Source: Eledone cirrhosa (Eukaryota). From it: a stretch of DNA of 64,000 bases. Of the stretch, positions 1-55,800 are shown one piece after another. The position numbers and the translations under genes were made by a program. The stretch is taken from assembly GCA_964016885.1 (NCBI GenBank), contig OZ024744.1:124310001-124374000 (forward strand). The letters are read 5' to 3'. A model generated the notes under the pieces. That model made no database searches, was not told the DNA's origin, and saw only the letters and a list, made by a program, of their open reading frames with translations. The first letter of the stretch is position 1. Each line of letters starts with the position of its first letter.

Positions 1-3000
1 CCCATGACAGGTAGGACAATAGTCTGTAATAACTTGTCCAACCCATGACAGGTAGGACAATAATCTGTAATAACTTGTCTAACCCATGACAGGTAGGACA
101 ATAGTCTGTAATAACTTGTCCAACCCATGTATGTAGGACAATAGTCTGTAATAACTTGTCCAACCCATGTATGTAGGACAATAGTCTGTAATAATAATTT
201 GTCCAACCCATGTATGTAGGACAATAGTCTGTAATAACTTGTCCAACCCATGAAAGGTAGGTCAATAGTCTGTAATAACTTGTCCAACCCATGTATGTAG
301 GACAATAGTCTGTAATAACTTGTCCAACCCATGGCATGTAGGACAATAGTCTGTAATAACTTGTCCAACCCATGACAGGTAGGACAATAGTCGGTAATAC
401 CTTGTCCAACCAATGACAGGTAGGACAATAGTCTGTAATAACTTGGCCAACCCATGTATGTAGGACAATAGTCTGTAATAACTTGTCCAACCCATGTATG
501 TAGGACAATAGTCTGTAATAACTAGTCCAAACCATGACAGGTAGGACAATAGTCTGTAATAACTTGTCCAACCCATGACAGGTAGGACAATAGTCTGTAA
601 TAACTTGTCCAACCCATGTATGTAGGACAATAGTCTGTAATAACTTGTCCAACCCATGACAGGTAGGACAATAGTGTGTAATAACTTGTCCAACCCATGA
701 CAGGTAGGACAATAGTCTGTAATAACTTGTCCAACCCATGTATGCAGGACAATAGTCTGTAATAACTTGTCCAACCCATGTATGTAGGTCAATAGCCTGT
801 AATAACTTGTCCAATCCATGACAGGTAGGACAATAGTCTGTAATAACTTGTCCAACCCATGACAAGTAGGACAATAGTCTGTAATAACTTGTCCAACCCA
901 TGTATGTAGGACAATAGTCTGTAATAACTTGTCCAACCGATGTATGTACGACAATAGTCTGTAATAACTTGCCTAACCCATGTATGTAGGACAATAGTCT
1001 GTAATAACTTGTCCAACCCATGTATGTAGGACAATAGTCTATAATAACTTTTCCAACCCATGTATGTAGGACAATAGTCTGTAATAACTTGTCCAACCCA
1101 TGACAGGTAGGACAATAGTCTGTAATACCTCGTCCAACCCATGACAGGTAGGACAATAGTCTGTAATAACTTGTCCAACCCATGACAGGTAGGACAATAG
1201 TCTGTAATAACTTGTCCAACCCATGTATGTAGGACAATAGTCTGTAATAACTTGTCCAACCCATGACAGGTAGGACAATAGTCTGTAATAACTTGTCCAA
1301 CCCATGCATGTAGGACAATAGTCTGTAATAACTTGTCCAACACATGTATGTAGGACAATAGTCTGTAATAACTTGTCCAACCCATGACAGCTAGGACAAT
1401 AGTCTGTAATAACTTGTCCAACCCATGACATATAGGACAATAGTCTGTAATAACTTGTCCAACCCATGCCAGGTAGGACAATAGTCTGTAATAACTTGTC
1501 CAACCCATGACAGGTAGGACAATAGTCTGTAATAACTTGTCCAACCCATGTATGTAGGACAATAGTCTGTAATAACTTGTCCAACCCATGACAGATAGGA
1601 CAATAGTCTGTAATAACTTTTCTAACCCATGTATGTAGGACAATAGTCTGTAATAACTTGTCCAACCCATGTATGTAGGACAATAGTCTATAATAACTTG
1701 TCCAACCCATGTATGTAGGACAATTGTCTGTAATAACTTGTCCAACCCATGACAGGTAGGACAATAGTCTGTAATACCTCGTCCAACCCATGACAGGTAG
1801 GACAATAGTCTGTAATAACTTGTCCAAGCCATGACAGGTAGGACAATAGTCTGTAATAACTTGTCCAACACATGACTGGTAGGACAATAGTCTGTAATAA
1901 CTTGTCCATCCCATGACAGGTAGGACAATAGTCTGTAATAACTTGTCCAACCCATGACAGCTAGGACAATACTCTGTAATAACTTGCCCAACCCATGTAT
2001 GTAGGACAATAGTCTGTAATAACTTGTCCAACCCATGACAGGTAGGACAATAGTCTGTAATAACTTGTCCATCCCATGACAGGTAGGACAATAGTCTGTA
2101 ATAACTTGTCGAACCCATGTATGTAGGTCAATAGTCTGTAATAAATTGTCCAACCCATGACAGGTAGGACAATAGTCTGTAATAACTTGTCCAACCCATG
2201 ACAGGTAGGACAATAATCTGTAATAACTTGTCTAACCCATGACAGGTAGGACAATAGTCTGTAATAACTTGTCCAACCCATGTATGTAGGACAATAGTCT
2301 GTAATAACTTGTCCAACCCATGTATGTAGGACAATAGTCTGTAATAATAATTTGTCCAACCCATGTATGTAGGACAATAGTCTGTAATAACTTGTCCAAC
2401 CCATGAAAGGTAGGTCAATAGTCTGTAATAACTTGTCCAACCCATGTATGTAGGACAATAGTCTGTAATAACTTGTCCAACCCATGGCATGTAGGACAAT
2501 AGTCTGTAATAACTTGTCCAACCGATGACAGGTAGGACAATAGTCGGTAATACCTTGTCCAACCAATGACAGGTAGGACAATAGTCTGTAATAACTTGGC
2601 CAACCCATGTATGTAGGACAATAGTCTGTAATAACTTGTCCAACCCATGTATGTAGGACAATAGTCTGTAATAACTAGTCCAAACCATGACAGGTAGGAC
2701 AATAGTCTGTAATAACTTGTCCAACCCATGACAGGTAGGACAATAGTCTGTAATAACTTGTCCAACCCATGTATGTAGGACAATAGTCTGTAATAACTTG
2801 TCCAACCCATGACAGGTAGGACAATAGTGTGTAATAACTTGTCCAACCCATGACAGGTAGGACAATAGTCTGTAATAACTTGTCCAACCCATGACAGATA
2901 GGACGATAGTCTGTAATAACTTGTCCAACCCATGTATGTAGGTCAATAGCCTGTAATAACTTGTCCAATCCATGACAGGTAGGACAATAGTCTGTAATAA

Positions 3001-6000
3001 CTTGTCCAACCCATGACAAGTAGGACAATAGTCTGTAATAACTTGTCCAACCCATGTATGTAGGACAATAGTCTGTAATAACTTGTCCAACCGATGTATG
3101 TACGACAATAGTCTGTAATAACTTGCCTAACCCATGTATGTAGGACAATAGTCTGTAGTAACTTGTCCAACCCATGTATGTAGGACAATAGTCTATAATA
3201 ACTTGTCCAACCCATGTATGTAGGACAATAGTCTGTAATAACTTGTCCAACCCATGACAGGTAGGACAATAGTCTGTAATACCTCGTCCAACCCATGACA
3301 GGTAGGACAATAGTCTGTAATAACTTGTCCAACCCATGACAGGTAGGACAATAGTCTGTAATAACTTGTCCAACCCATGTATGTAGGACAATAGTCTGTA
3401 ATAACTTGTCCAACCCATGACAGGTAAGACAATAGTCTGTAATAACTTGTCCAACCCATGACAGGTAGGGCAATAGTCTGTAATAACTTGTCCAACCCAT
3501 GTATGTAGGACAATAGTCTGTAATAACTTGTCCAACCCATGACAGGTAGGACAATAGTCTGTAATAACTTGTCCAGCCCATGCCAGGTAGGACAAAGTCT
3601 GTAATAACTTGTCCAACCCATGACAGGTAGGGCAATAGTCTGTAATAACTTGTCCAACCCATGACAGGTAGGACAATAGTGTGTAATAACTTGTCCAACC
3701 CATGACAGGTAGGGCAATAGTCTGTAATAACTTGTCCAACCCATGTATGCAGGACAATAGTCTGTAATAACTTGTCCATCCCATGACAGGTAGGACAATA
3801 GTCTGTAATAACTTGTCCAACCCATGCATGTAGGACAATAGTCTGTAATAACTTGTCCAACCCATGTATGTAGGACAATAGTCTGTAATAACTTGTCCAA
3901 CCTATGACAGGTAGGAAAATAGTCTGTAATAACTTGTCCATCCCATGACAGGTAGGACAATAGTCTGTAATAACTTGTCCAACCCATGACAGCTAGGACA
4001 ATAGTCTGTAATAACTTGTCGAACCCATGTATGTAGGACAATAGTCTGTAATAAATTGTCCAACCCATGACAGGTAGGACAATAGTCTGTAATAAATTGT
4101 CCAACCCATGACAGGTAGGACAATAATCTGTAATAACTTGTCTAACCCATGACAGGTAGGACAATAGTCTGTAATAACTTGTCCAACCCATGACAGGTAG
4201 GACAATAATCTGTAATAACTTGTCTAACCCATGACAGGTAGGACAATAGTCTGTAATAACTTGTCCAACCCATGTATGTAGGACAATAGTCTGTAATAAC
4301 TTGTCCAACCCATGTATGTAGGACAATAGTCTGTAATAATAATTTGTCCAACCCATGTATGTAGGACAATAGTCTGTAATAACTTGTCCAACCCATGAAA
4401 GGTAGGTCAATAGTCTGTAATAACTTGTCCAACCCATGTATGTAGGACAATAGTCTGTAATAACTTGTCCAACCCATGGCATGTAGGACAATAGTCTGTA
4501 ATAACTTGTCCAACCCATGACAGGTAGGACAATAGTCGGTAATACCTTGTCCAACCAATGACAGGTAGGACAACAGTCTGTAATAACTTGGCCAACCCAT
4601 GTATGTAGGACAATAGTCTGTAATAACTTGTCCAACCCATGTATGTAGGACAATAGTCTGTAATAACTAGTCCAAACCATGACAGGTAGGACAATAGTCT
4701 GTAATAACTTGTCCAACCCATGACAGGTAGGACAATAGTCTGTAATAACTTGTCCAACCCATGTATGTAGGACAATAGTCTGTAATAACTTGTCCAACCC
4801 ATGACAGGTAGGACAATAGTGTGTAATAACTTGTCCAACCCATGACAGGTAGGACAATAGTCTGTAATAACTTGTCCAACCCATGTATGCAGGACAATAG
4901 TCTGTAATAACTTGTCCAACCCATGTATGTAGGTCAATAGCCTGTAATAACTTGTCCAATCCATGACAGGTAGGACAATAGTCTGTAATAACTTGTCCAA
5001 CCCATGACAAGTAGGACAATAGTCTGTAATAACTTGTCCAACCCATGTATGTAGGACAATAGTCTGTAATAACTTGTCCAACCGATGTATGTACGACAAT
5101 AGTCTGTAATAACTTGCCTAACCCATGTATGTAGGACAATAGTCTGTAATAACTTGTCCAACCCATGTATGTAGGACAATAGTCTATAATAACTTTTCCA
5201 ACCCATGTATGTAGGACAATAGTCTGTAATAACTTGTCCAACCCATGACAGGTAGGACAATAGTCTGTAATACCTCGTCCAACCCATGACAGGTAGGACA
5301 ATAGTCTGTAATAACTTGTCCAACCCATGACAGGTAGGACAATAGTCTGTAATAACTTGTCCAACCCATGTATGTAGGACAATAGTCTGTAATAACTTGT
5401 CCAACCCATGACAGGTAGGACAATAGTCTGTAATAACTTGTCCAACCCATGCATGTAGGACAATAGTCTGTAATAACTTGTCCAACACATGTATGTAGGA
5501 CAATAGTCTGTAATAACTTGTCCAACCCATGACAGCTAGGACAATAGTCTGTAATAACTTGTCCAACCCATGACATATAGGACAATAGTCTGTAATAACT
5601 TGTCCAACCCATGCCAGGTAGGACAATAGTCTGTAATAACTTGTCCAACCCATGACAGGTAGGACAATAGTCTGTAATAACTTGTCCAACCCATGACAGC
5701 TAGGACAATAGTCTGTAATAACTTGTCCAACCCATGACAGGTAGGGCAATAGTCTGTAATAACTTGTCCAACCCATGACAGGTAGGACAATAGTCTGTAA
5801 TAACTTGTCCAACCCATGTATGTAGGACAATAGTCTGTAATAACTTGTCCAACCCATGACAGATAGGACAATAGTCTGTAATAACTTTTCTAACCCATGT
5901 ATGTAGGACAATAGTCTGTAATAACTTGTCCAACCCATGTATGTAGGACAATAGTCTGTAATAACTTGTCCAACCCATGTATGTCGGACAATAGTCTGTA

Positions 6001-9000
6001 ATAACTTGTCTAACCCATGTATGTAGGACAATAGTCTGTAATAACTTGTCCAACCCATGTATGTAGGACAATAGTCTATAATAACTTGTCCAACCCATGT
6101 ATGTAGGACAATTGTCTGTAATAACTTGTCCAACCCATGACAGGTAGGACAATAGTCTGTAATACCTCGTCCAACCCATGACAGGTAGGACAATAGTCTG
6201 TAATAACTTGTCCAAGCCATGACAGGTAGGACAATAGTCTGTAATAACTTGTCCAACACATGACTGGTAGGACAATAGTCTGTAATAACTTGTCCATCCC
6301 ATGACAGGTAGGACAATAGTCTGTAATAACTTGTCCAACCCATGACAGCTAGGACAATACTCTGTAATAACTTGCCCAACCCATGTATGTAGGACAATAG
6401 TCTGTAATAACTTGTCCAACCCATGACAGGTAGGACAATAGTCTGTAATAACTTGTCCATCCCATGACAGGTAGGACAATAGTCTGTAATAACTTGTCGA
6501 ACCCATGTATGTAGGACAATAGTCTGTAATAAATTGTCCAACCCATGACAGGTAGGACAATAGTCTGTAATAACTTGTCCAACCCATGACAGGTAGGACA
6601 ATAATCTGTAATAACTTGTCTAACCCATGACAGGTAGGACAATAGTCTGTAATAACTTGTCCAACCCATGTATGTAGGACAATAGTCTGTAATAACTTGT
6701 CCAACCCATGTATGTAGGACAATAGTCTGTAATAATAATTTGTCCAACCCATGTATGTAGGACAATAGTCTGTAATAACTTGTCCAACCCATGAAAGGTA
6801 GGTCAATAGTCTGTAATAACTTGTCCAACCCATGTATGTAGGACAATAGTCTGTAATAACTTGTCCAACCCATGGCATGTAGGACAATAGTCTGTAATAA
6901 CTTGTCCAACCGATGACAGGTAGGACAATAGTCGGTAATACCTTGTCCAACCAATGACAGGTAGGACAATAGTCTGTAATAACTTGGCCAACCCATGTAT
7001 GTAGGACAATAGTCTGTAATAACTTGTCCAACCCATGTATGTAGGACAATAGTCTGTAATAACTAGTCCAAACCATGACAGGTAGGACAATAGTCTGTAA
7101 TAACTTGTCCAACCCATGACAGGTAGGACAATAGTCTGTAATAACTTGTCCAACCCATGTATGTAGGACAATAGTCTGTAATAACTTGTCCAACCCATGA
7201 CAGGTAGGACAATAGTGTGTAATAACTTGTCCAACCCATGACAGGTAGGACAATAGTCTGTAATAACTTGTCCAACCCATGACAGATAGGACGATAGTCT
7301 GTAATAACTTGTCCAACCCATGTATGTAGGTCAATAGCCTGTAATAACTTGTCCAATCCATGACAGGTAGGACAATAGTCTGTAATAACTTGTCCAACCC
7401 ATGACAAGTAGGACAATAGTCTGTAATAACTTGTCCAACCCATGTATGTAGGACAATAGTCTGTAATAACTTGTCCAACCGATGTATGTACGACAATAGT
7501 CTGTAATAACTTGCCTAACCCATGTATGTAGGACAATAGTCTGTAGTAACTTGTCCAACCCATGTATGTAGGACAATAGTCTATAATAACTTGTCCAACC
7601 CATGTATGTAGGACAATAGTCTGTAATAACTTGTCCAACCCATGACAGGTAGGACAATAGTCTGTAATACCTCGTCCAACCCATGACAGGTAGGACAATA
7701 GTCTGTAATAACTTGTCCAACCCATGACAGGTAGGACAATAGTCTGTAATAACTTGTCCAACCCATGTATGTAGGACAATAGTCTGTAATAACTTGTCCA
7801 ACCCATGACAGGTAAGACAATAGTCTGTAATAACTTGTCCAACCCATGACAGGTAGGGCAATAGTCTGTAATAACTTGTCCAACCCATGTATGTAGGACA
7901 ATAGTCTGTAATAACTTGTCCAACCCATGACAGGTAGGACAATAGTCTGTAATAACTTGTCCAGCCCATGCCAGGTAGGACAAAGTCTGTAATAACTTGT
8001 CCAACCCATGACAGGTAGGGCAATAGTCTGTAATAACTTGTCCAACCCATGACAGGTAGGACAATAGTGTGTAATAACTTGTCCAACCCATGACAGGTAG
8101 GGCAATAGTCTGTAATAACTTGTCCAACCCATGTATGCAGGACAATAGTCTGTAATAACTTGTCCATCCCATGACAGGTAGGACAATAGTCTGTAATAAC
8201 TTGTCCAACCCATGCATGTAGGACAATAGTCTGTAATAACTTGTCCAACCCATGTATGTAGGACAATAGTCTGTAATAACTTGTCCAACCTATGACAGGT
8301 AGGAAAATAGTCTGTAATAACTTGTCCATCCCATGACAGGTAGGACAATAGTCTGTAATAACTTGTCCAACCCATGACAGCTAGGACAATAGTCTGTAAT
8401 AACTTGTCGAACCCATGTATGTAGGACAATAGTCTGTAATAAATTGTCCAACCCATGACAGGTAGGACAATAGTCTGTAATAAATTGTCCAACCCATGAC
8501 AGGTAGGACAATAATCTGTAATAACTTGTCTAACCCATGACTGGTAGGACAATAGTCTGTAATAATTTGTCCAACCCATGTATGTAGGACAATAGTCTGT
8601 AATAACTTGTCCAACCCATGAAAGGTAGGTCAATAGTCTGTAATAACTTGTCCAACCCATGTATGTAGGACAATAGTCTGTAATAACTTGTCCAACCCAT
8701 GTATGTAGGACAATAGTCTGTAATAACTTGTCCAAACCATGACAGGTAGGACAATAGTCTGTAATAACTTGTCCAACCTATGACAGGTAGGACAATAGTC
8801 TGTAATAACTTGTCCAACCCATGACAGGTAGGACAATAGTCTGTAATAACTTGTCCAACCCATGACAGGTAAGACAATATTCTGTAATAACTTGTCCAAC
8901 CCATGTATGTAAGACAATAGTGTGTAATAACTTGTCCAACCCAATTCAGGTAGGACAATAGTCTAATAACTTGTCCAACTCATGACAGGTAGGACGATAG

Positions 9001-12000
9001 TCTGTAATAACTTGTCCAACCCATGTATTTAGGACAATAGTCTGTAATAACTTGTCCAAACCATGACAGGTAGGACAATAGTCTGTAATAACTTGTCCAA
9101 GCCATGACAGGTAGGACAATAGTCTGTAATAACTTGTCCAACACATGACTGGTAGGACAATAGTCTGTAATAACTTGTCCAACCCATGACAGCTAGGACA
9201 ATACTCTGTAATAACTTGCCCAACCCATGTATGTAGGACAATAGTCTGTAATAACTTGTATGTAAGACAATAGTGTGTAATAACTTGTCCAACCCATGAC
9301 AGGTAGGACAATAGTCTGTAATAACTTGTCCAACCCATGACAGGTAGGACAATAGTCTGTAATAACTTGTCCAACCCATGACAGGTAGGACAATAGTCTG
9401 TAATAACTTGTCCAACCCATGACAGGTAAGACAATATTCTGTAATAACTTGTCCAACCCATGTATGTAAGACAATAGTGTGTAATAACTTGTCCAACCCA
9501 ATTCAGGTAGGACAATAGTCTGTAATAACTTGTCCAACCCATGACAGGTAGGACAATAGTCGGTAATACCTTGTCCAACCAATGACAGGTAGGACAATAG
9601 TCTGTAATAACTTGGCCAACCCATGTATGTAGGACAATAGTCTGTAATAACTTGTCCAACCCATGTATGTAGGACAATAGTCTGTAATAACTAGTCCAAA
9701 CCATGACAGGTAGGACAATAGTCGGTAATACCTTGTCCAACCAATGACAGGTAGGAGAACAGTCTGTAATAACTTCTCCAACCCATAACAGGTAGGACAA
9801 TAGTCTGTAATACCTTGTCCAACCAATGACAGGTAGGACAATAGTCTGTAATAACTTGTCCAACCCATGTATATAGGACAATAGTCTGTAATAACTTGTC
9901 CAACCCATGTATGTAGGACAATAGTCTGTAATAACTTGTCCAAACCATGACAGGTAGGACAATAGTCTGTAATAACTTGTCCAACCCATGACAGGTAGGA
10001 CAATAGTCTGTAATAACTTGTCCAACCCATGACAGATAGGACGATAGTCTGTAATAACTTGTCCAACCCATGTATGTAGGTCAATAGCCTGTAATAACTT
10101 GTCCAATCCATGACAGGTAGGACAATAGTCTGTAATAACTTGTCCAACCCATGACAAGTAGGACAATAGTCTGTAATAACTTGTCCAACCCATGACAGAT
10201 AGGACGATAGTCTGTAATAACTTGTCCAACCCATGTATGTAGGTCAATAGCCTGTAATAACTTGTCCAATCCATGAAAGGTAGGTCAATAGTCTGTAATA
10301 ACTTGTCCAACCCATGTATGTAGGACAATAGTCTGTAATAACTTGTCCAACCCATGTATGTAGGACAATAGTCTGTAATAACTTGTCCAAACCATGACAG
10401 GTAGGACAATAGTCTGTAATAACTTGTCCAATCCATGACAGGTAGGACAATAGTCTGTAATAACTTGTCCAACCCATGACAAGTAGGACAATAGTCTGTA
10501 ATAACTTGTCCAACCCATGTATGTAGGACAATAGTCTGTAATAACTTGTCCAACCGATGTATGTACGACAATAGTCTGTAATAACTTGTCCAACCCATGT
10601 ATGTAGGACAATAGTCTATAATAACTTGTCCAACCCATGTATGTAGGACAATAGTCTGTAATAACTTGTCCAACCCATGACAGGTAGGACAATAGTCTGT
10701 AATAACTTGTCCAACCCATGTATGTAGGACAATAGTCTGTAATAACTTGTCCAACCCATGACAGGTAGGACAATAGTCTGTAATAACTTGTCCAACCCAT
10801 GTATGTAGGACAATAGTCTGTAATAACTTGTCCAACCCATGTATGTAGGACAATAGTCTGTAATAACTTGTGCAACCCATGACAGGTAGGACAATAGTCT
10901 GTAATAACTTGTCCAACCCATGTATGTAGGACAATTGTCTGTAATAACTTGTCCAACCCATGACAGGTAGGACAATAGTCTGTAATAACTTGTCCAACCC
11001 ATGTATGTAGGACAATAGTCTGTAATAACTTGTCCAACCCATGACAGGTAGGACAATAGTCTGTAATAACTTGTCCAACCCATGTATGCAGGACAATAGT
11101 CTGTAATAACTTATCCAACCCATGACAGGTAGGACAATAGTCTGTAATAACTTGTCCAAGCCATGAGAGGTAGGGCAATAGTCTGTAATAACTTGTCCAA
11201 CCAATGTATGTAGGACAATAGTCTGTAATAACTTGCCCAAACCATGACAGGTAGGACAATAGTCTGTAATAACTTGTCCAACCCATGCATGTCGGACAAT
11301 AGTCTGTAATAACTTGTCCAACCCATGTATGTAGGACAGTAGTCTGTAATAACTTGTCCAACCCATGACAGGTAGGACAATAGTCTGTAATAACTTGTCC
11401 ATCCCATGACAGGTAGGACAATAGTCTGTAATAACTTGTCCAACCCATGACAGCTAGGACAATAGTCTGTAATAACTTGTCCAACCCATGACAGCTAGGA
11501 CAATAGTCTGTAATAACTTGTCCAACCCATGACATGTAGGACAATAGTCTGTAATAACTTGTCCAACCTATGACAGGTAGGACAATAGTCTGTAATAACT
11601 TGTCCAACCCATGACATGTAGGACAATAGTCTGTAATAACTTGTCCAACCCATGACAGGTAGGACAATAGTCCGTAATAACTTGTCGAACCCATGTATGT
11701 AGTACAATAGTCTGTAATAAATTGTCCAACCCATGACGGGTAGGACAATAGTCTGTAATAACTTGTCCAACCCATGACAGGTAGTACAATAATCTGTAAT
11801 AACTTGTCTAACCCATGACAGGTAGGACAATAGTCTGTAATAACTTGTCCAACCCATGTATGTAGGACAATAGTCTGTAATAACTTGTCCAACCCATGTA
11901 TGTAGGACAATAGTCTGTAATAATAATTTGTCCAACCCATGTATGTAGGACAATAGTCTTTAATAACTTGTCCAACCCATGAAAGGTAGGTCAATAGTCT

Positions 12001-39000: not shown

Positions 39001-42000
39001 CAGGTAGGACAATAGTCTGTAATAACTTGTCCAACCCATGACAGCTAGGACAATAGTCTGTAATAACTTGTCCAACCCATGACAGGTAGGACAATAGTCT
39101 GTAATAACTTGTCTCGCCCATTACAGGTAGGACAATAGTCTGTAATAACTTGTCCAACCCATGACAGGTAGGACAATAGTGTGTAATAACTTGTCCAACC
39201 CATGACAGGTAGGACAATAGTCTGTAATAACTTGTCCAACCCATGTATGTAGGACAATAGCCTGTAATAACTTGTCCAACCCATGACAGGTAGTACAATA
39301 GTCTGTAATAACTTGTCCAACCCATGACAGGTAGGACAATAGTCTGTAATACCTTGTCCAACCAATGACAGGTAGGAAAATAGTATGTAATACCTTATCC
39401 AACCAATGACAGGTAGGACAATAGTCTGTAATAACTTGTCCAACCCATGTATGTAGGACAATAGTCTGTAATAACTTGCCCAACGCATGTATGTAGGACA
39501 ATAGTGTGTAATAACTTGTCCAACCCATGACAGGTAGGACAATTGTCTGTAATAACTTGTCCAACCCATGTATGTAGGACAATAGTCTGTAATAACTTGT
39601 CCAACCTATGACAGGTAGGACAATAGTCTGTAATTACTTGCCCAACCCATGACAGGTTGGACAATAGTCGGTAATAACTTGCCCAACGCATGTATGTAGG
39701 ACAATAGTGTGTAATAACTTGTCCAACCCATGACAGGTAGGACAATAGTCTGTAATAACTTGTCCAACCCATGTATGTAGGACAATAGTCTGTAATAACT
39801 TGTCCAACCCATGACAGGTAGGACAATAGTCTGTAATAACTTGTCCAACCCATGACAGGTAGGACAATAGTCTGTAATAACTTGTCCAACCCATGTATGT
39901 AGGACAATAGTGTGTAATAACTTGTCCAACACATGACAGCTAGGACAATAGTGTGTAATAACTTGTCCAACCCATGTATGTAGGACAATAGTCTATAATA
40001 ACTTGTCCAACCCATGTATGTAGGACAATAGTCTGTAATAACTGGTCCAACCCATGTATGTACGACAATAGTGTGTAATAACTTGTCCATCCCATGACAA
40101 GTAGGACAATAGTCTGTAATACCTTATCCAACCAATGACAGGTAGGAAAATAGTCTGTAATAACTTGTCCAACCCATGACAGGTAGGACAATAGTCTGTA
40201 ATACCTTGTCCAACCAATGACAGGTAGGACAATAGTCTGTAATAACTTGTCCAACCCATGACAGGTTGGACAATAGTCTGTAATAACTTGTCCAACCTAT
40301 GACAGGTAGGACAATAGTCTGTAATAACTTGTCCAACCCATATATGTAGGAGAATACTCTGTAATAACTTGTCCAACCCATGACAGGTAGTACAATAGTC
40401 TGTAATAACTTTTCCAACCCATGACAGGTAGGACAATAGTCTGTAAAAACGTGTCCAACCCATGACAGATAGGACAATAGTCTGTAATAACTTGTCCAAC
40501 CCATGTATGTAGGACAATAGTCTGTAATAACTTGTCCAACCCACGTATGTACGACAATAGTGTGTAATAACTTGTCCAACCCATGTATGTAGGACAATAG
40601 TCTGTAATAACTTGTCCAACCTATGACAGGTAGGACAATAGTCTGTAATAACTTGTCCAACCCATGACAGGTAGGACAATACTCTGTAATAACTTGTCCA
40701 ACCCATGTATGTAGGACAATAGTTTGTAATAACTTGTCCAACCCATGACAGGTAGGACAATAGTCTGTAATAACTTGTCCAACCCATGCATGTGGGACAA
40801 TAGTCTGTAATAACTTTTCCAACCCATGTATGTAGGACGATAGTCTGTAATAAGTTGTCCAACCCATGACAGGTAGGACAATAGTCTGTAATAACTTGTC
40901 CAACCCATGTATGTAGGACAATAGTTTGTAATAACTTGTCCAACCCATGACAGGTAGGACAATAGTCTGTAATAACTTGTCCAACCCATGTATGTAGGAC
41001 AATAGTCTGTAATAACTTGTCCAACCCATGTATGTAGGACAATAGTCTGTAATAACTTGTCCTACCCATGTATGTAGGACAATAGTCTGTAATAACTTGT
41101 CCAACCCATGTATGTAGGACAATAGTCTGTAATAACCTGTCCAACCCATGACAGGTAGGACAATAGTCTGTAATAGCTTGTCCAACCCATGACAGGTAAG
41201 ACAATAGTCTGTAATAACTTGTCCAACCCATGACAGGTAGGACAATAGTCTGTAATAACTTGTCCAACCCGTGACAGGTAGAACAATAGTCTATAATAAT
41301 TTGTCCAACCCATGACAGGTAGGACAATAGTCTGTAATAAATTGTTCAACCCATGTATGTAGGACAATAGGCTGTAATAACTTGTCCAACCCATGTATGT
41401 ACGACAATAGTCTGTAATAACTTGTCCAACCCATGTATGTAGGACAATAGTCTCTAATAACTTGTCCAACCCATGACAGGTAGGACAATACTCTGTAATA
41501 ACATGTCCAACCCATGACAGGTAGGACAATAGTCTGTAATAACTTGTCCAACCCATGACAGGTAGGACAATAGTCTGTAATAACTTGTCCAACCCATGTA
41601 TGTAGGACAATAGTCTGTAATAACTTGTCCAACCCATGTATGTAGGACAATAGTCTGTAATAACTTGTCCAACCCATGTATGTAGGACAATAGTCTGTAA
41701 TAACTTGTCCAACCCATGTATGTAGGACGATAGTCTGTAATAACTTGTCCAACCCATGACAGGTAGGACAATAGTCTGTAATAACTTGTCCAACCCATGT
41801 ATGTAGGACAATAGTTTGAATAACTTGTCCAACCCATGACAGGTAGGACAATAGTCTGTAATAACTTGTCCAACCCATGTATGTAGGACAATAGTCTGTA
41901 ATAACTTGTCCAACCCATGTATGTAGGACAATAGTCTGTAATAACCTGTCCAACCCATGACAGGTAGGACAATAGTCTGTAATAACTTGTCCAACTCATG

Positions 42001-45000
42001 ACAGGTAGGACAATAGTCTGTAATAGCTTGTCCAACCCATGACAGGTAAGACAATAGTCTGTAATAACTTATCCAACCCATGCCAGGTAGGACAATAGTC
42101 TGTAATAACTTGTCCAACCCATGTATATAGGACAATAGACTGTAATAACTTGTCCAGCCCATGTATGTAGGACAATAGTCTGTAATAACTTGTCCAACCC
42201 ATGACAGGTAGGACAATAGTCTGTAATAACTTGTCCAACCCATGTATATAGGAAAATAGACTGTAATAACTTGTCCAACCCATGACAGGTAGGACAATAG
42301 TCTGTAATACCTTGTCCAACCAATGACAGGTAGGACAATAGTCTGTAATAACTTGTCCAACCCATGACATGTTGGACAATAGTCTGTAATAACTTGTCCA
42401 ACCTATGACAGGTAGGACAATAGTCTGTAATAACTTGTCCAACCCATGTATGTAGGAGAATACTCTGTAATAACTTGTCCAACCCATGACAGGTAGTACA
42501 ATAGTCTGTAATAACTTTTCCAACCCATGACAGGTAGGACAATAGTCTGTAAAAACTTGTCCAACCCATGACAGGTAGGACAATAGTCTGTAATAACTTG
42601 TGCAACCCATGTATGTAGGACAATAGTCTGTAATAACTTGTCCAACCCATGACAGGTAGGACAATAGTCTGTAATAACTTGTCCAACCCATGTATGTAGG
42701 ACAATAGTCTGTAATAACTTGTCCAACCCACGTATGTACGACAATAGTGTGTAATAACTTGTCCGACCCATGTATGTAGGACAATAGTCTGTAATAACTT
42801 GTCCAATCCATGACAGGTAGGACAATAGTCTGTAATAACTTGTCCAACCCATGTATGTAGGACAATAGTTTGTAATAACTTGTCCAACCCATGACAGGTA
42901 GGACAATAGTCTGTAATAACTTGTCCAACCCATGTATGTAGGACAATAGTCTGTAATAACTTGTCCAACCCATGTATGTAGGACGATAGTCTGTAATAAC
43001 TTGTCCAACCCATGACAGGTAGGACAATAGTCTGTAATAACTTGTCCAACCCATGTATGTAGGACAATAGTTTGTAATAACTTGTCCAACCCATGACAGG
43101 TAGGACAATAGTCTGTAATAACTTGTCCAACCCATGTATGTAGGACAATAGTCTGTAATAACTTGTCCAACCCATGTATGTAGGACAATAGTCTGTAATA
43201 ACTTGTCCTACCCATGTATGTAGGACAATAGTCTGTAATAACTTGTCCAACCCATGTATGTAGGACAATAGTCTGTAATAACCTGTCCAACCCATGACAG
43301 GTAGGACAATAGTCTGTAATAACTTGTCCAACTCATGACAGGTAGGACAATAGTCTGTAATAGCTTGTCCAACCCATGACAGGTAAGACAATAGTCTGTA
43401 ATAACTTGTCCAACCCATGACAGGTAGGACAATAGTCTGTAATAACTTGTCCAACCCGTGACAGGTAGAACAATAGTCTGTAATAATTTGTCCAACCCAT
43501 GACAGGTAGGACAATAGTCTGTAATAAATTGTTCAACCCATGTATGTAGGACAATAGGCTGTAATAACTTGTCCAACCCATGTATGTACGACAATAGTCT
43601 GTAATAACTTGTCCAACCCATGACAGGTAGGACAATACTCTGTAATAACATGTCCAACCCATGACAGGTAGGACAATAGTCTGTAATAACTTGTCCAACC
43701 CATGTATATAGGACAATAGACGGTAATAACTTGTCCAGCCCATGTATGTAGGACAATAGTCTGTAATAACTTGTCCAACCCATGACAGGTAGGACAATAG
43801 TCTGTAATAACTTGTCCAACCCATGTATATAGGACAATAGTCTGTAATAACTAGTCCAACCCATGCCAGGTAGGACAATAGTCTGTAATAACTTGTCCAA
43901 CCCATGTATATAGGACAATAGACTGTAATAACTTGTCCAACCCATGACAGGTAGGACAATAGTCTGTAATACCTTGTCCAACCAATGACAGGTAGGACAA
44001 TAGTCTGTAATAACTTGTCCAACCCATGACAGGTTGGACAATAGTCTGTAATAACTTGTCCAACCTATGACAGGTAGGACAATAGTCTGTAATAACTTGT
44101 CCAACCCATGTATGTAGGAGAATACTCTGTAATAACTTGTCCAACCCATGACAGGTAGTACAATAGTCTGTAATAACTTTTCCAACCCATGACAGGTAGG
44201 ACAATAGTCTGTAAAAACTTGTCCAACCCATGACAGGTAGGACAATAGTCTGTAATAACTTGTGCAACCCATGTATGTAGGACAATAGTCTGTAATAACT
44301 TGTCCAACCCATGACAGGTAGGACAATAGTCTGTAATAACTTGTCCAACCCATGTATGTAGGACAATAGTCTGTAATAACTTGTCCAACCCACGTATGTA
44401 CGACAATACTGTGTAATAACTTGTCCGACCCATGTATGTAGGACAATAGTCTGTAATAACTTGTCCAACCCATGTATGTAGGACAATAGTTTGTAATAAC
44501 TTGTCCAACCCATGACAGGTAGGACAATAGTCTGTAATAACTTGTCCAACCCATGTATGTAGGACAATAGTCTGTAATAACTTGTCCAACCCATGTATGT
44601 AGGACAATAGTCTGTAATAACTTGTCCAACCCATGTCTGTAGGACAATAGTCTGTAATAACTTGTCCAACCCATGTATGTAGGACAATAGTCTGTAATAA
44701 CCTGTCCAACCCATGACAGGTAGGACAATAGTCTGTAATAACTTGTCCAACTCATGACAGGTAGGACAATAGTCTGTAATAGCTTGCCCAACCCATGACA
44801 GGTAAGACAATAGTCTGTAATAACTTGTCCAACCCATGACAGGTAGGACAATAGTCTGTAATAACTTGTCCAACCCGTGACAGGTAGGACAATAGTCTGT
44901 AATAACTTGTCCAACCCATGTATGTAGGACAATAGTTTGTAATAACTTGTCCAACCCATGACAGGTAGGACAATAGTCTGTAATAACTTGTCCAACCCAT

Positions 45001-48000
45001 GTATGTAGGACAATAGTCTGTAATAACTTGTCCAACCCATGTATGTAGGACAATAGTCTGTAATAACTTGTCCTACCCATGTATGTAGGACAATAGTCTG
45101 TAATAACTTGTCCAACCCATGTATGTAGGACAATAGTCTGTAATAACCTGTCCAACCCATGACAGGTAGGACAATAGTCTGTAATAGCTTGTCCAACCCA
45201 TGACAGGTAAGACAATAGTCTGTAATAACTTGTCCAACCCATGACAGGTAGGACAATAGTCTGTAATAACTTGTCCAACCCGTGACAGGTAGAACAATAG
45301 TCTGTAATAATTTGTCCAACCCATGACAGGTAGGACAATAGTCTGTAATAAATTGTTCAACCCATGTATGTAGGACAATAGGCTGTAATAACTTGTCCAA
45401 CCCATGTATGTACGACAATAGTCTGTAATAACTTGTCCAACCCATGTATGTAGGACAATAGTCTCTAATAACTTGTCCAACCCATGACAGGTAGGACAAT
45501 ACTCTGTAATAACATGTCCAACCCATGACAGGTAGGACAATAGTCTGTAATAACTTGTCCAACCCATGACAGGTAGGACAATAGTCTGTAATAACTTGTC
45601 CATCCCATGCCAGGTAGGATTAAAGTCTGTAATAATTTGTCCAACCCATGACAGGTAGGACAATAGTCTGTAATAACTTGTCCAACCCATGTATGTAGGA
45701 CAATAGTCTGTAATAACTTGTCCAACCCATGTATGTAGGACAATAGTCTGTAATAACTTGTCCAACCCATGTATGTAGGACAATAGTCTGTAATAACTTG
45801 TCCAACCCATGTATGTAGGACGATAGTCTGTAATAACTTGTCCAACCCATGACAGGTAGGACAATAGTCTGTAATAACTTGTCCAACCCATGTATGTAGG
45901 ACAATAGTTTGAATAACTTGTCCAACCCATGACAGGTAGGACAATAGTCTGTAATAACTTGTCCAACCCATGTATGTAGGACAATAGTCTGTAATAACTT
46001 GTCCAACCCATGTATGTAGGACAATAGTCTGTAATAACCTGTCCAACCCATGACAGGTAGGACAATAGTCTGTAATAACTTGTCCAACTCATGACAGGTA
46101 GGACAATAGTCTGTAATAGCTTGTCCAACCCATGACAGGTAAGACAATAGTCTGTAATAACTTATCCAACCCATGCCAGGTAGGACAATAGTCTGTAATA
46201 ACTTGTCCAACCCATGTATATAGGACAATAGACTGTAATAACTTGTCCAGCCCATGTATGTAGGACAATAGTCTGTAATAACTTGTCCAACCCATGACAG
46301 GTAGGACAATAGTCTGTAATAACTTGTCCAACCCATGTATATAGGAAAATAGACTGTAATAACTTGTCCAACCCATGACAGGTAGGACAATAGTCTGTAA
46401 TACCTTGTCCAACCAATGACAGGTAGGACAATAGTCTGTAATAACTTGTCCAACCCATGACAGGTTGGACAATAGTCTGTAATAACTTGTCCAACCTATG
46501 ACAGGTAGGACAATAGTCTGTAATAACTTGTCCAACCCATGTATGTAGGAGAATACTCTGTAATAACTTGTCCAACCCATGACAGGTAGTACAATAGTCT
46601 GTAATAACTTTTCCAACCCATGACAGGTAGGACAATAGTCTGTAAAAACTTGTCCAACCCATGACAGGTAGGACAATAGTCTGTAATAACTTGTGCAACC
46701 CATGTATGTAGGACAATAGTCTGTAATAACTTGTCCAACCCATGACAGGTAGGACAATAGTCTGTAATAACTTGTCCAACCCATGTATGTAGGACAATAG
46801 TCTGTAATAACTTGTCCAACCCACGTATGTACGACAATAGTGTGTAATAACTTGTCCGACCCATGTATGTAGGACAATAGTCTGTAATAACTTGTCCAAT
46901 CCATGACAGGTAGGACAATAGTCTGTAATAACTTGTCCAACCCATGTATGTAGGACAATAGTTTGTAATAACTTGTCCAACCCATGACAGGTAGGACAAT
47001 AGTCTGTAATAACTTGTCCAACCCATGTATGTAGGACAATAGTCTGTAATAACTTGTCCAACCCATGTATGTAGGACGATAGTCTGTAATAACTTGTCCA
47101 ACCCATGACAGGTAGGACAATAGTCTGTAATAACTTGTCCAACCCATGTATGTAGGACAATAGTTTGTAATAACTTGTCCAACCCATGACAGGTAGGACA
47201 ATAGTCTGTAATAACTTGTCCAACCCATGTATGTAGGACAATAGTCTGTAATAACTTGTCCAACCCATGTATGTAGGACAATAGTCTGTAATAACTTGTC
47301 CTACCCATGTATGTAGGACAATAGTCTGTAATAACTTGTCCAACCCATGTATGTAGGACAATAGTCTGTAATAACCTGTCCAACCCATGACAGGTAGGAC
47401 AATAGTCTGTAATAACTTGTCCAACTCATGACAGGTAGGACAATAGTCTGTAATAGCTTGTCCAACCCATGACAGGTAAGACAATAGTCTGTAATAACTT
47501 GTCCAACCCATGACAGGTAGGACAATAGTCTGTAATAACTTGTCCAACCCGTGACAGGTAGAACAATAGTCTGTAATAATTTGTCCAACCCATGACAGGT
47601 AGGACAATAGTCTGTAATAAATTGTTCAACCCATGTATGTAGGACAATAGGCTGTAATAACTTGTCCAACCCATGTATGTACGACAATAGTCTGTAATAA
47701 CTTGTCCAACCCATGACAGGTAGGACAATACTCTGTAATAACATGTCCAACCCATGACAGGTAGGACAATAGTCTGTAATAACTTGTCCAACCCATGTAT
47801 ATAGGACAATAGACGGTAATAACTTGTCCAGCCCATGTATGTAGGACAATAGTCTGTAATAACTTGTCCAACCCATGACAGGTAGGACAATAGTCTGTAA
47901 TAACTTGTCCAACCCATGTATATAGGACAATAGTCTGTAATAACTAGTCCAACCCATGCCAGGTAGGACAATAGTCTGTAATAACTTGTCCAACCCATGT

Positions 48001-51000
48001 ATATAGGACAATAGACTGTAATAACTTGTCCAACCCATGACAGGTAGGACAATAGTCTGTAATACCTTGTCCAACCAATGAGAGGTAGGACAATAGTCTG
48101 TAATAACTTGTCCAACCCATGACAGGTTGGACAATAGTCTGTAATAACTTGTCCAACCTATGACAGGTAGGACAATAGTCTGTAATAACTTGTCCAACCC
48201 ATGTATGTAGGAGAATACTCTGTAATAACTTGTCCAACCCATGACAGGTAGTACAATAGTCTGTAATAACTTTTCCAACCCATGACAGGTAGGACAATAG
48301 TCTGTAAAAACTTGTCCAACCCATGACAGGTAGGACAATAGTCTGTAATAACTTGTGCAACCCATGTATGTAGGACAATAGTCTGTAATAACTTGTCCAA
48401 CCCATGACAGGTAGGACAATAGTCTGTAATAACTTGTCCAACCCATGTATGTAGGACAATAGTCTGTAATAACTTGTCCAACCCACGTATGTACGACAAT
48501 ACTGTGTAATAACTTGTCCGACCCATGTATGTAGGACAATAGTCTGTAATAACTTGTCCAACCCATGTATGTAGGACAATAGTTTGTAATAACTTGTCCA
48601 ACCCATGACAGGTAGGACAATAGTCTGTAATAACTTGTCCAACCCATGTATGTAGGACAATAGTCTGTAATAACTTGTCCAACCCATGTATGTAGGACAA
48701 TAGTCTGTAATAACTTGTCCAACCCATGTCTGTAGGACAATAGTCTGTAATAACTTGTCCAACCCATGTATGTAGGACAATAGTCTGTAATAACCTGTCC
48801 AACCCATGACAGGTAGGACAATAGTCTGTAATAACTTGTCCAACTCATGACAGGTAGGACAATAGTCTGTAATAGCTTGCCCAACCCATGACAGGTAAGA
48901 CAATAGTCTGTAATAACTTGTCCAACCCATGACAGGTAGGACAATAGTCTGTAATAACTTGTCCAACCCGTGACAGGTAGAACAATAGTCTGTAATAATT
49001 TGTCCAACCCATGACTGGTAGGACAATAGTCTGTAATAATTTGTCCAACCCATGTATGTAGGTCAATAGCCTGTAATAACTTGTACAACCCATGATAGGT
49101 AGGACAATAGTCTGTAATAACTTGTCCAACCCATGACAGGTAGGTCAATAGTCTGTAATAACTTGTCCAACCCATGACAGGTAGGACAATAGTCTGTAAT
49201 AACTTGTCCAACCCATGTATGTAGGACAATAGTGTGTAATAACTTGTCCAACACATGACAGCTAGGACAATAGTGTGTAATAACTTGTCCAACCCATGTA
49301 TGTAGGACAATAGTCTATAATAACTTGTCCAACCCATGTATGTAGGACAATAGTCTGTAATAACTGGTCCAACCCATGTATGTACGACAATAGTGTGTAA
49401 TAACTTGTCCATCCCATGACAGGTAGGACAATAGTCTGTAATACCTTGTCCAACCAATGACAGGTAGGAAAATAGTCTGTAATAACTTGTCCAACCCATG
49501 ACAGGTAGGACAATAGTCTGTAATACCTTGTCCAACCAATGACAGGTAGGACAATAGTCTATAATAACTTGTCCAACCCATGACAGGTTGGACAATAGTC
49601 TGTAATAACTTGTCCAACCTATGACAGGTAGGACAATAGTCTGTAATAACTTGTCCAACCCATGTATGTAGGAGAATACTCTGTAATAACTTGTCCAACC
49701 CATGACAGGTAGTACAATAGTCTGTAATAACTTTTCCAACCCATGACAGGTAGGACAATAGTCTGTTAAAACTTGTCCAACCCATGACAGGTAGGACAAT
49801 AGTCTGTAATAACTTGTGCAACCCATGTATGTAGGACAATAGTCTGTAATAACTTGTCCAACCCATGACAGGTAGGACAATAGTCTGTAATAACTTGTCC
49901 AACCCATGTATGTAGGACAATAGTCTGTAATAACTTGTCCAACCCACGTATGTACGACAATAGTCTGTAATAACTTGTCCAACCCATGTATGTAGGACAA
50001 TAGTCTGTAATAACTTGTCCAACCTATGACAGGTAGGACAATAGTCTGTAATAACTTGTCCAACCCATGACAGGTAGGACAATAGTCTGTAATAACTTGT
50101 CCAACCCATGTATGTAGGACAATAGTTTGTAATAACTTGTCCAACCCATGACAGGTAGGACAATAGTCTGTAATAACTTGTCCAACCCATGTATGTAGGA
50201 CAGTAGTCTGTAATAACTTGTCCAACCCATGTATGTAGGACGATAGTCTGTAATAACTTGTCCAACCCATGACAGGTAGGACAATAGTCTGTAATAACTT
50301 GTCCAACCCATGTATGTAGGACAATAGTTTGTAATAACTTGTCCAACCCATGACAGGTAGGACAATAGTCTGTAATAACTTGTCCAACCCATGTATGTAG
50401 GACAATAGTCTGTAATAACTTGTCCAACCCATGTATGTAGGACAATAGTCTGTAATAACTTGTCCTACCCATGTATGTAGGACAATAGTCTGTAATAACT
50501 TGTCCAACCCATGTATGTAGGACAATAGTCTGTAATAACCTGTCCAACCCATGACAGGTAGGACAATAGTCGGTAATAACTTGTCCAACTCATGACAGGT
50601 AGGACAATAGTCTGTAATAGCTTGTCCAACCCATGACAGGTAAGACAATAGTCTGTAATAACTTGTCCAACCCATGACAGGTAGGACAATAGTCTGTAAT
50701 AACTTGTCCAACCCATGACAGGTAGAACAATAGTCTGTAATAATTTGTTCAACCCATGACAGGTAGGACAATAGTCTGTAATAAATTGTCCAACCCATGT
50801 ATGTAGGACAATAGGCTGTAATAACTTGTCCAACCCATGTATGTACGACAATAGTCTGTAATAACTTATCCAACCCATGCCAGGTAGGACAATAGTCTGT
50901 AATAACTTGTCCAACCCATGTATATAGGACAATAGTCTGTAATAACTAGTCCAACCCATGACAGGTAGGACAATAGTCTGTAATAACTTGTCCAACCCAT

Positions 51001-52533
51001 GACAGGTAGGACAATAGTCTGTAATAACTTGTCCAACCCATGCCAGGTAGGATAAAAGTCTGTAATAATTTGTCCAACCCATGACAGGTAGGACAATAGT
51101 CTGTAATAACTTGTCCAACCCATGTATGTAGGACAATAGTCTGTAATAAATTGTCCAACCCATGTATGTAGGACAATAGTCTGTAATAACTTGTCCAACC
51201 CATGACAGGTAGGACAATAGTCTGTAATAACTTGTCCAACCCATGTATGTAGGACAATAGTCTGTAATAACTTGTCCAACCCATGTATGTAGGACGATAG
51301 TCTGTAATAACTTGTCCAACCCATGTATGTAGGACAATAGTTTGAATAACTTGTCCAACCCATGACAGGTAGGACAATATTCTGTAATAACTTGTCCAAC
51401 CCATGTATGTAGGACAATAGTCTGTAATAACTTGTCCAACCCATGTATGTAGGACAATAGTCTGTAATAACCTGTCCAACCCATGACAGGTAGGACAATA
51501 GTCTGTAATAACTTGTCCAACTCATGACAGGTAGGACAATAGTCTGTAATAGCTTGTCCAACCCATGCCAGGTAGGACAATAGTCTGTAATAACTTGTCC
51601 AACCCATGTATATAGGACAATAGTCTGTAATAACTAGTCCAACCCATGACAGGTAGGACAATAGTCTGTAATAACTTGTCCAATCCATGTATATAGGACA
51701 ATAGTCTGTAATAACTTGTTCAACCCATGTATGTAGGACAATAGTCTGTAATATCTTGTCCAACCCATGACAGGTAGGACAATAGTCTGTAATAACTTGT
51801 CCAACCCATGTATGTAGGACAATAGTCTGTAATAACTTGTCCAACCCATGACAGGTAGGACAATAGTCTGTAATAACTAGTCCAACCCATGACAGGTAGG
51901 ACAATAGTCTGTAATAACTTGTCCAATCCATGTATATAGGACAATAGTCTGTAATAACTTGTCCAACCCATGTATGTAGGACAATAGTCTGTAATATCTT
52001 GTCCAACCCATGACAGGTAGGACAATAGTCTGTAATAACTTGTCCAACCCATGTATGTAGGACAATAGTCTGTAATAACTTGTCCAACCCATGACAGGTA
52101 GGACAATAGTCTGTAATAACTTGTCCAACCCATGTATGTAGGACAATAGTCTGTAATAACTTGTCCAACCCATGACAGGTAGGACAATAGTCTGTAATAA
52201 CTTGTCCAACCCATGACAGGTAGGGCAATAGTCTGTAATAACTTGTCCAACCCATGTATGTAGGACAATAGTCTGTAATAACTTGTCCAACCCATGACAG
52301 GTAGGACAATAGTCTGTAATAACTTGTCCAACCCATGACAGGTAGGACAATAGTCTGTAATAACTTGTCCAACCCATGACAGGTAGGACAATAGTCTGTA
52401 ATACATTGTCCAACCCATACCAGGTGGGACAATAGTCTGTAATAACTTGTCCATAGGTCAATAGCCTGTAATAACTTGTCCAACCCATGTATGAAGGACA
52501 ATAGTCTGTAATTACTTGTCTAGCCCATGCCAG
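1..52533. repeat. Satellite array of 40/41-bp monomers (types A and B), >52.5 kb, truncated by the left window edge; ~1,300 copies by length division
   Basis: Continuous head-to-tail copies of CCCAT[GACAGG|GTATG]TAGGACAATAGTCTGTAATAACTTGTCCAA, usually with 0-2 substitutions per unit. I saw no interrupting unique sequence. The last ~3 units (52395-52533) are more diverged. Confidence 0.99.
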
Positions 52534-52554
52534 TTTAGAAAACAATGATGATGA
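52510..52554 (+). mobile_element. Degenerate RTE-like retroelement 3' end with (GAT)n tail, fused to the last satellite unit
   Basis: ACTTGTCTAGCCCATGCCAGTTTAGAAAACAATGATGATGA parallels ...GTCTAACCCATGCTAGCATGGAA...GATGATGAT seen at 60115-60160 (+) and as the reverse complement at 54225-54290. Confidence 0.55.
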
Positions 52555-52590
52555 CATGTTTGTAATGAAAATGGTGATATTATTTGACAG

Positions 52591-52647
52591 GTCTTCCGGA
52601 AGCTTTTCTCTCTTGGAATGAGTGAATTAACCGAAGAGAAATTAATT
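52591..52647 (+). CDS. PIK3R4: Internal coding exon (57 nt, phase 0-0) of phosphoinositide 3-kinase regulatory subunit 4 / Vps15: VFRKLFSLGMSELTEEKLI
   Basis: tatttgacAG acceptor and GTAAGT donor. The peptide resembles recalled human PIK3R4 LLKKLLSQGMTEEEEDKLL and continues in phase into the downstream exons. Confidence 0.85.
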
Positions 52648-52721
52648 GTAAGTAGATTTTAACAGTTGCAAAATAATAAAAATAACAAAAAAAAACCAAC
52701 AGTGTGTATCCTTTTCTGTAC

Positions 52722-54224: not shown

Positions 54225-55375
54225 CATCATCATCATCACGGTTTTACGTCCGTTCTTCCATGCTAGCATGGGTTAGACGGGTTGTCCTGTAGTGGGCAGT
54301 GCCCGGTCGGCTGACCTTGTCTTGCTCATAAGGGAACTGATTCTGGCTTGATTTCTACAGCTGGATGCCCTTCCTAACACCAACCTCATTTACAGTGGGT
54401 GCTGGGTGCTTTTTTGCCGTGGCACCTCCACGACCTCTTTGCAGTGGGAGGGTGTGGGGGCATATTGTCTATATGCTTCAGATTCTGCTTGTACCTATTG
54501 GGGGCCGGGTCTTCTGTATTACTGCATGACGCCAGAAGTCACGGTCGTATGTCATCGCTTTTGAGAGGTGTAATTGGGTAAAGTCGGCTTTTATCACCTC
54601 ATCCCAGGTCTTCGTGGGTCTCCCCACTCCGCGGTTTCCATTGACTTCTAGTGCTCTGCACCTTTTTATGCAGCTGTCATCCTTCATACGCATCACATGT
54701 CCATACCAACGTCACCGCCTCTCCTGGACATAGCATTTGATTCCTCTTATGCTCAGTCTCTCTCTCAATTCATTTATGCTTTGCCGTTCGCATATATTAC
54801 TATTACACATCCAATCTACACAAATCTTCCACAGGCAGTGCCCAGGTCTCACTACCATGTAACATCGCTGTTCGTATACACGCATCATACAGTCTGCCTT
54901 TCATTTTGAGGGAAAAGCCTTTTGCAGCTAGCAGTGGCAGTAGCTCCCTGAACTTCTTGCATCCTGTTCTTACCCTAGTTATTGTACTTTCCGAACACCC
55001 ACCTCTGCTGCTAATTTGGTCACCTAGGTAGCAGAAGCTGTCTACTGTTTCTACAGAGCCCTCCCAGAGTTTAGTGGTGCTTGTTTCCTGTGGCTGTTTG
55101 CTGCTTCCTGTCCCAGCACAGCTGCTACATGTGAAGCCTACATTCTTAGTTAAGCTTCCTGAGATCCCGCTACATCTCTTGTGAACCCATTGTTTGCATT
55201 TGGGGCAGAGAATGGAGTTCCTACCTACACCTTTCCTACATAGTGAGCAAGGCCATTTCCTTCAGGGGATCTGGGTTCTGTTTTCTCGTCTACTTACAAG
55301 GACCTTAGTCTTTGTCAGGTTGACTTTGAGACCTTTTGTTTCTAGTCCCTGCTTCCATGTTCGGAATTTCTTCTC
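54225..55375 (-). mobile_element. 5'-truncated RTE-clade LINE (C-terminal ORF remnant, 3' UTR and (GAT)n tail)
   Basis: Minus-strand translation gives GLKVNLTKTKVLV, a Cys/His finger (CSLC..CPKC..HKRC..CSSC), DSFCYLGD, and MRM...GRPTKTWDEVIKAD..DRDFWR. Ends in a CATCAT tail on the + strand. Confidence 0.85.
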
Positions 55376-55544
55376 TACACTCATCGTTGTAACTGACAGA
55401 GTGCTTCAGTTCAGTTTAAATGATTAAAATCTTATTTATCTTGAATTACCTGTTAATTAATCAGATAAATCAAACTTAGGTAAATTTTAAGTCTCACCAG
55501 GTGTGTATTTATGAGTTGTAACGGAGATTTTCCTTATGACATCA

Positions 55545-55800
55545 AGAAACACATACAGGCACTCACATATAGAAGCCCATGCACACATACAGCCACACAC
55601 ACACGCATACACTCGCATACAGAAACAGATACACACACACATATACACATACACAGACACACATACACAGACACACACACACAGACACACATACACACAG
55701 AAACACATACATACACACACACACACACAGACATACATATACACACAGAAACACACCGAAATACACACACACAACATACACAGAAACACAGACACACACC
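55545..55800. repeat. Imperfect (CA)n-rich microsatellite
   Basis: Mixed CA/CATA/CAGA units. Confidence 0.9.

Follow-up and report, generated by a model that had tools for sequence, protein, structure and literature searches.

A satellite array of about 419 kb fills one intron of PIK3R4/VPS15 in the octopod Eledone cirrhosa

We analyzed a 64,000-bp stretch of the Eledone cirrhosa genome (hereafter the window; contig OZ024744.1, or C28, positions 124,310,001-124,374,000, forward strand, from the 3.0-Gb assembly GCA_964016885.1) that carries part of PIK3R4, the gene for VPS15. Vps15 is a conserved subunit of the Vps34 complex and is broadly required in other animals. A preliminary description of the window had reported a homogeneous satellite of more than 52 kb within one PIK3R4/VPS15 intron. 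This was borne out, and the array proved to be about 419 kb long, eight times the length visible in the window. It makes up 99.6% of intron 20, which measures 420,733 bp and lies in phase 0 between exons 20 and 21, joined in frame. We consider it probable that this is a satellite intron private to its locus, which expanded through tandem duplication in place while its size was not under selection, is transcribed whole and is spliced out in one step. This reading starts from the observed exon order, phase and open reading frame (ORF), the continuity and privacy of the array, the presence of other satellite introns in the gene, and a duplicate of the locus with a different array.

Intron 20 and its satellite array

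A genome search with the Octopus bimaculoides PIK3R4 protein (P0001, whose protein cluster also includes O. vulgaris, O. sinensis and Argonauta sequences) placed the PIK3R4 exons on the + strand of C28 at 123.57-124.50 Mb. The window peptide at 58,391-58,537, in exon 23, was 98% identical to P0001, its sole hit among 2 candidates. The resulting model, copy A, has 34 exons and a coding sequence of 4,035 nt with zero stops, every intron is GT-AG, and the spliced ORF agrees with P0001 at 1,309 of 1,344 residues. P0001 contains PF00069 (kinase-like), PF22956 (helical/HEAT) and PF00400 (WD40) above cut-off, the VPS15 helical domain being aa 352-730; since copy A is nearly identical to P0001, it is PIK3R4/VPS15 with all three in one ORF. 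A PF22956 profile search of the genome gave zero matches, its controls were likewise blank, and the exons were located by the protein search instead. The preliminary description had expected further Vps15 exons upstream, and they were all found on the same contig and strand, collinear and in an intact ORF. Copy A spans 931,019 bp, and its introns have a median length of 4,033 bp; its 4,035 coding nucleotides leave more than 99% of the locus non-coding. Exon 20 (aa 695-753, 177 nt) ends CCA|GTAAGT at C28:123,941,857. It is present once in the whole assembly, and therefore no alternative locus with a short intron was found.

Within the window, Tandem Repeats Finder (TRF) reported a single array at 1-52,533 with period 41, 1,294 copies and 91% adjacent matches. 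By TRF and anchors, this is the 3' 52.5 kb (+ strand) of a 40/41-bp array at C28:~123,943,441-124,362,533, which 10,140 anchors traced over C28:123,942,201-124,362,496 with no N. Its monomers are 40 and 41 bp long, each about 97% identical to its own commonest type across the whole array, and GC content is 39% (0.39-0.41). The single interruption, of 1.2 kb, lies close to the 5' end (C28:123,942,278-123,943,440), where it cuts off two leading monomers from the remainder; by eye it resembles a retroelement fragment. Outside the array the intron has only short flanks: about 340 nt precede the first monomers on the donor side, and 57 nt remain on the acceptor side. A distinct mini-array of ~54 bp was seen between donor and first monomer. 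The unique 3' end (52,534-52,590 of the window, + strand, gene model) runs to the acceptor ...TATTTGACAG, with its AG at 52,589-52,590; its leave-one-out position weight matrix score of 7.1 falls in the lower third of the gene's 33 acceptors. Exon 21 (aa 754-772, 57 nt, phase 0/0) follows at 52,591-52,647 on the + strand, with RNA-like cover confined to the exon. An array end near 52,533, an AG acceptor and a phase-0 exon from 52,591 had all been read correctly beforehand.

The array comprises 936 distinct monomers arranged as regional variant blocks, with rare variants common to neighboring 42-kb bins (cosine up to 0.90) and not to distant ones (down to 0.10). Its longest exact internal repeat is a tandem one of about 8.5 kb, or 2% of the array; 40% of 300-mers recur inside the array, but only 1.1% of 4-kb windows do. 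We found no short fixed higher-order repeat within the window, where the best lag match for the rarer monomers was 0.09. Genome-wide, a 34-nt motif of the array had 4,519 forward and 354 reverse exact matches (4,873 in all). Because these counts equal those in copy A plus an inverted duplicate of the locus, copy B, the satellite is, by exact 34-mer matches, private to the PIK3R4 locus. The monomer had no exon match at E<=10 in 770 kb of non-array DNA. Two further ideas about the repeat were set aside: derivation of the monomer from a retroelement tail, where the best E values of 0.66-2.6 gave a weak hint only, and a structured satellite RNA, where a six-monomer fold gave z=-2.7, yet the centroid was unstructured. 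Avoidance of poly(A) signals was modest, with AATAAA at 0.39 versus 0.82 per kb and 166 sites left.

Assembly across the intron and a decayed duplicate

The 514 kb of contiguous DNA around intron 20 (C28:123,910,001-124,424,000) contains no N. In run X1, a 595-bp short-read DNA contig leads from array monomers through exon 21 to position 53,000 of the window, with one difference in its aligned part, and copy B has the same array-exon edge with single-nucleotide polymorphisms of its own. Since the X1 contig crosses the edge and copy B repeats it, there is no sign of the misjoin at ~52,535 that the preliminary description had named as a risk. The regional variant blocks, together with a longest exact repeat of only ~8.5 kb, are what an array that grew naturally and can be resolved should show.

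Homogeneous arrays are generally difficult to assemble. The exon order could thus be right while the array length is partly an artifact of expanded or stitched repeats, the true intron being much shorter. The recurrence of 300-mers, the one 8.5-kb exact repeat and the length of the copy B array, merely 44 kb, would all suit such an explanation. We judge it unlikely, as intron 20 is free of N gaps, its 936 monomers fall into regional blocks, 4-kb windows seldom recur, and the shortness of the copy B array is explained by the deletion bordering its 5' end, through which exons 19-20 were lost as well. Contig depth in X1 (3.7-3.9 on unique exon 20 contigs, ~29,900 summed over one monomer bin) agrees in order of magnitude with the ~11,200 assembled monomers, but was not used, since depth is no copy number.

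Copy B is an inverted (- strand) duplicate of the whole PIK3R4 locus at C28:135,439,628-135,992,156, 11 Mb from copy A. The two are 99.2% identical over 19.4 kb, and 98.8-99.3% identical in introns and in the flanks on both sides. We found 31 exons in copy B, which lacks exon 13 and exons 19-20 and has a frameshifting 2-bp deletion in exon 27. Over the 3,637 nt compared, it carries two synonymous changes and three missense changes (S373N, R420W and G1313R), each of which replaces the residue present in O. bimaculoides. Whether copy B is a paralog or a haplotype, no intact PIK3R4/VPS15 other than copy A is present in the assembly.

The arrays of the two copies share 0 exact 400-mers and 1.4% of 200-mers, the latter mostly from the last 60 kb of the copy A array. 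By calculation, collinear arrays at the flank substitution rate of 0.44% would share ~17% of 400-mers and ~41% of 200-mers. Intron 10 also differs, at 55.8 kb in copy A and ~177 kb in copy B. Because the arrays hold almost no long words in common despite flanks that are 99.2% identical, and because intron 10 differs as well, the arrays turn over far faster than their flanks.

The near-identity of introns and both flanks, the same 16-bp satellite adjoining both copies, and the position of copy B close to the contig end could all be taken to mean that the copies are two haplotypes placed on one scaffold, so that intron length would be allelic and copy B a null allele or a misassembled haplotig. 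This is very unlikely in our estimation. Copy B is disabled by three distinct lesions (in exon 13, exons 19-20 and exon 27), and its missense changes outnumber the synonymous ones and all move away from the residue in O. bimaculoides. The edge of its exon 19-20 deletion (C28:135,610,716-135,612,250) carries tandem copies of a 405-bp element that is young and dispersed (98-100% identical to many loci), and a probe 250 kb beyond its 5' end has no counterpart near copy A. A decaying segmental duplicate fits these observations better than a haplotype does. Across at least 10 contigs, the 405-bp element occurs at many loci in brief tandem series, with 94-100% identity. The 16-bp satellite fills 6 of 6 probes over the 1.35 Mb adjoining copy B (C28:134.0-135.35 Mb), with a 32-bp relative at 135.35 Mb, and occurs near copy A (C28:124.6 Mb) in the opposite orientation; it is possibly a megabase array linked to the PIK3R4 duplication.

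Origin, transcription and splicing

The satellite intron of the preliminary description is real, but the gene has four satellite-filled introns, as well as the broken second copy. Introns 12 and 18 and parts of introns 10 and 28 were sampled by probes. Intron 10 contains an 83/90-bp satellite. In intron 18 (115.6 kb), a 48-bp satellite covers ~110 kb as judged by array ends and probes, and intron 28 (84.7 kb) contains another 48-bp satellite; intron 33 has a 5-kb array. The intron 18 satellite belongs to a dispersed family with 14,411 genome matches, the first 100 listed all being on contig C1. On distal C28, 12 of 20 chosen probes were wholly tandem, whereas evenly spaced probes were at least 79% tandem in 2 cases out of 14 on C1-C4 and in 2 out of 6 on proximal C28. 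Because three other introns hold other satellites and the distal chromosome is largely satellite, PIK3R4 has most likely been carried along as a passenger where satellites expand. Satellite-filled introns seem to be common in this part of the genome and have precedents elsewhere. Among the matches listed, the intron 18 satellite clusters near the C1 end (431-436 Mb); C1-C4 are four contigs of 379-443 Mb that make up over half of the assembly. Probes in intron 12 (C28:123,665,745-123,801,218, 135 kb) contained many (TA)n-type microsatellites instead of a single satellite.

We infer seed expansion, the limits of selection and transcription of the whole array. Most likely, a short local repeat seed expanded in repeated rounds of kb-scale tandem duplication, by unequal exchange or during replication, as the kb-scale exact repeats and regional variant blocks suggest. 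The setting would be a distal chromosome region in which many unrelated satellites expand, with purifying selection retaining only the exons and short flanks at the splice sites. The intron would be transcribed in full, and ordinary splicing would then remove it. If RNA polymerase II (Pol II) moves at an assumed 2 kb/min, it would need 3.5 h for intron 20 and 7.8 h for the gene; a rate of ~45 min per 100 kb is given in an excerpt of PMC2773006.

The record of run X4 gives no kind, and we treated the run as RNA from its exon-confined cover: in the two stretches around exons 20 and 21, cover was confined to these exons. Cover at exon 21 was flat at 24, and partial bins of 8.2 and 4.42 fit 52,591-52,648 exactly. 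At exon 20, one 236-nt contig showed no differences on the exon and departed from the genome after GT. Exon 21 shares 2 letters with the start of intron 20, and an unspliced or recursive product would share at least 3. Because the departure falls after the GT that exon 21 shares, the contig fits an exon 20-21 splice. The junction to 52,591 expected in RNA is thus matched by cover of exactly exons 20 and 21 and by the contig end, from which the junction itself is deduced. In the same stretches, the runs from other organisms, X5, X6 and X8, had cover on interspersed repeats only. Satellite contigs also occur in X4, and may come from transcripts or from DNA carry-over. Some 10,000 repeats are likely to be transcribed for each mRNA made.

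The 236 nt of the X4 contig can be split into 30+177+29, which is what the inclusion arm should measure in a bubble whose other arm joins exon 19 to exon 21. In-frame skipping of exon 20 fits this length, and one event would account for both contig ends; it would remove 59 aa in frame, partly within the helical domain. The same length is also given by a retained intron 19 together with a cryptic array donor (88 AA|GTAGGA copies), and the share of exon 20 skipping is unreadable from contigs. The split O. bimaculoides models P0005 and P0006, which break at intron 21 and not 20, were too weak a lead to be used.

The monomer itself raises a different route of removal. On the sense strand, the array presents 4,803 sites of the form CAGGTAGG (CAG|GTAGGA) and 467 of the form CAGGTAAG (CAG|GTAAG), so that a real intron might be removed recursively, with 41-bp monomers as CAG|GTAGGA ratchet points and both types giving U1 donor sites. 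CAG|GTAGGA is the actual donor 9-mer of exon 9, the monomer's donor score of 7.0 exceeds those of 10 of the 33 real donors (leave-one-out), and its AG|GT site score was reached by 1.0% of 5,000 shuffles. Large invertebrate introns are enriched in recursive sites, according to part of PMC2773006. Set against this, the acceptor half reaches a score of -0.7, lower than 32 of the 33 real acceptors; the p=0.01 comes from a single test among 10 (unit by strand), and the donor score is partly circular, as the matrix contains the same 9-mer. The three other intronic satellites have no sense-strand AG|GT, and the X4 contig agrees with the first 2 letters of the intron, whereas 3 would be expected from a recursive intermediate. 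Like the ratchet points covered in that portion of PMC2773006, the monomer combines an AG|GT core with a good donor half, but it has no polypyrimidine tract, and its ~12 sites/kb compare with 0.5-2.2 per 100 kb in the invertebrates of that paper. We regard recursive removal as improbable. Its further form, a self-licensing satellite in which the 41-bp unit acts as a tandem zero-length exon, a mis-splice restores the donor and U1 coats the transcript, is likewise a long shot. Were it true, a ladder of ~5,000 ratchet points would make growth nearly cost-free even in a core housekeeping gene, and occasional skipping of the preceding exon would be the price of a self-licensing array.

Removal of a wholly transcribed array in one step is the reading we prefer, and several points weigh against it. 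The array length rests on one assembly, in which the 8.5-kb tandem repeat could have been duplicated during assembly. As its sense strand carries a donor-like 9-mer, the monomer may play some part in splicing. The exon 20-21 junction comes from a contig end and the RNA nature of X4 from its cover, and passage of Pol II through the whole array is deduced from cis-splicing.

Downstream of exon 21, the gene model places four more exons on the + strand of the window: exon 22 (aa 773-787) at 57,025-57,068, exon 23 (aa 787-837; also the peptide match to O. bimaculoides PIK3R4) at 58,390-58,539, exon 24 (aa 837-853) at 60,222-60,270 and exon 25 (aa 854-924) at 63,691-63,901. The introns between them, 21-24, hold mobile-element remnants at 54,481-58,050, 59,389-59,928, 60,794-61,360 and 62,607-63,200. 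These include a PHD finger match at 54,806-55,261 (-), a weak RVT_1 match at 57,296-57,742 and a weak DDE_3 match at 59,389-59,769. The stretches at 56.1-56.9 kb and 57.3-58.1 kb are near-copies in inverted orientation, judged by their translations.

Known systems and significance

The preliminary description had compared the intron with the gigantism of Drosophila Y genes. The anatomy matches, but there is a closer precedent in the stuttering of chicken dot chromosomes (part of PMC12954441), which intron 20 resembles at a ~20-fold larger scale. As described in that part, chicken stuttering likewise consists of strictly local tandem expansions, isolated between conserved exons. They affect ordinary genes, each of which may hold several, they lie in a chromosome compartment rich in repeats, and their length changes rapidly. 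It differs in that the exon-stuttering expansions measure 112-23,555 bp (median 1,751), against 419 kb in the octopod. The chicken regions are also GC-rich and free of interspersed repeats, whereas the octopod array is 39% GC in a gene whose introns carry retroelement remnants. Exon-derived units occur occasionally in chicken, and none was found for the octopod monomer in the 770 kb of non-array DNA.

The Drosophila Y-loop genes kl-3 and kl-5, as presented in portions of PMC6508621, PMC11207136 and PMC12965833, are likewise satellite-filled, with more than 99% of the locus intron and different satellites in different introns. They are Y-linked and expressed only in spermatocytes, with megabase simple-repeat introns and dedicated RNA-binding proteins. 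PIK3R4, in contrast, encodes a conserved Vps34-complex subunit and is not known to be tissue-restricted, its 40/41-bp unit is private to one intron, and transcription through its array is presumed. The heterochromatic Drosophila genes Myo81F (>2.5 Mb) and Pzl (>700 kb) offer expressed, non-Y examples of near-megabase size arising from a repeat-rich position (excerpt of PMC4352887); in that assembly their introns have unsized gaps, and both are stage-restricted in expression. In a literature search that was thin in subscription journals, we found no paper on satellite-filled introns in cephalopods, and the main text of PMC13282606, on O. vulgaris repeats, has zero occurrences of "satellite" or "intron".

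Intron 20 of PIK3R4 is a gap-free, fully sequenced example, from neither flies nor birds, of a conserved housekeeping gene with satellite intron gigantism. As its repeat is private to one intron, any probe signal or read maps to PIK3R4 or to its dead duplicate, and copy B serves as a built-in neutral control at ~0.5% divergence. The locus makes testable the passage of Pol II through hundreds of kb of tandem repeat, recursive cutting, exon skipping and array turnover. Short-read cephalopod assemblies may underestimate gene sizes.

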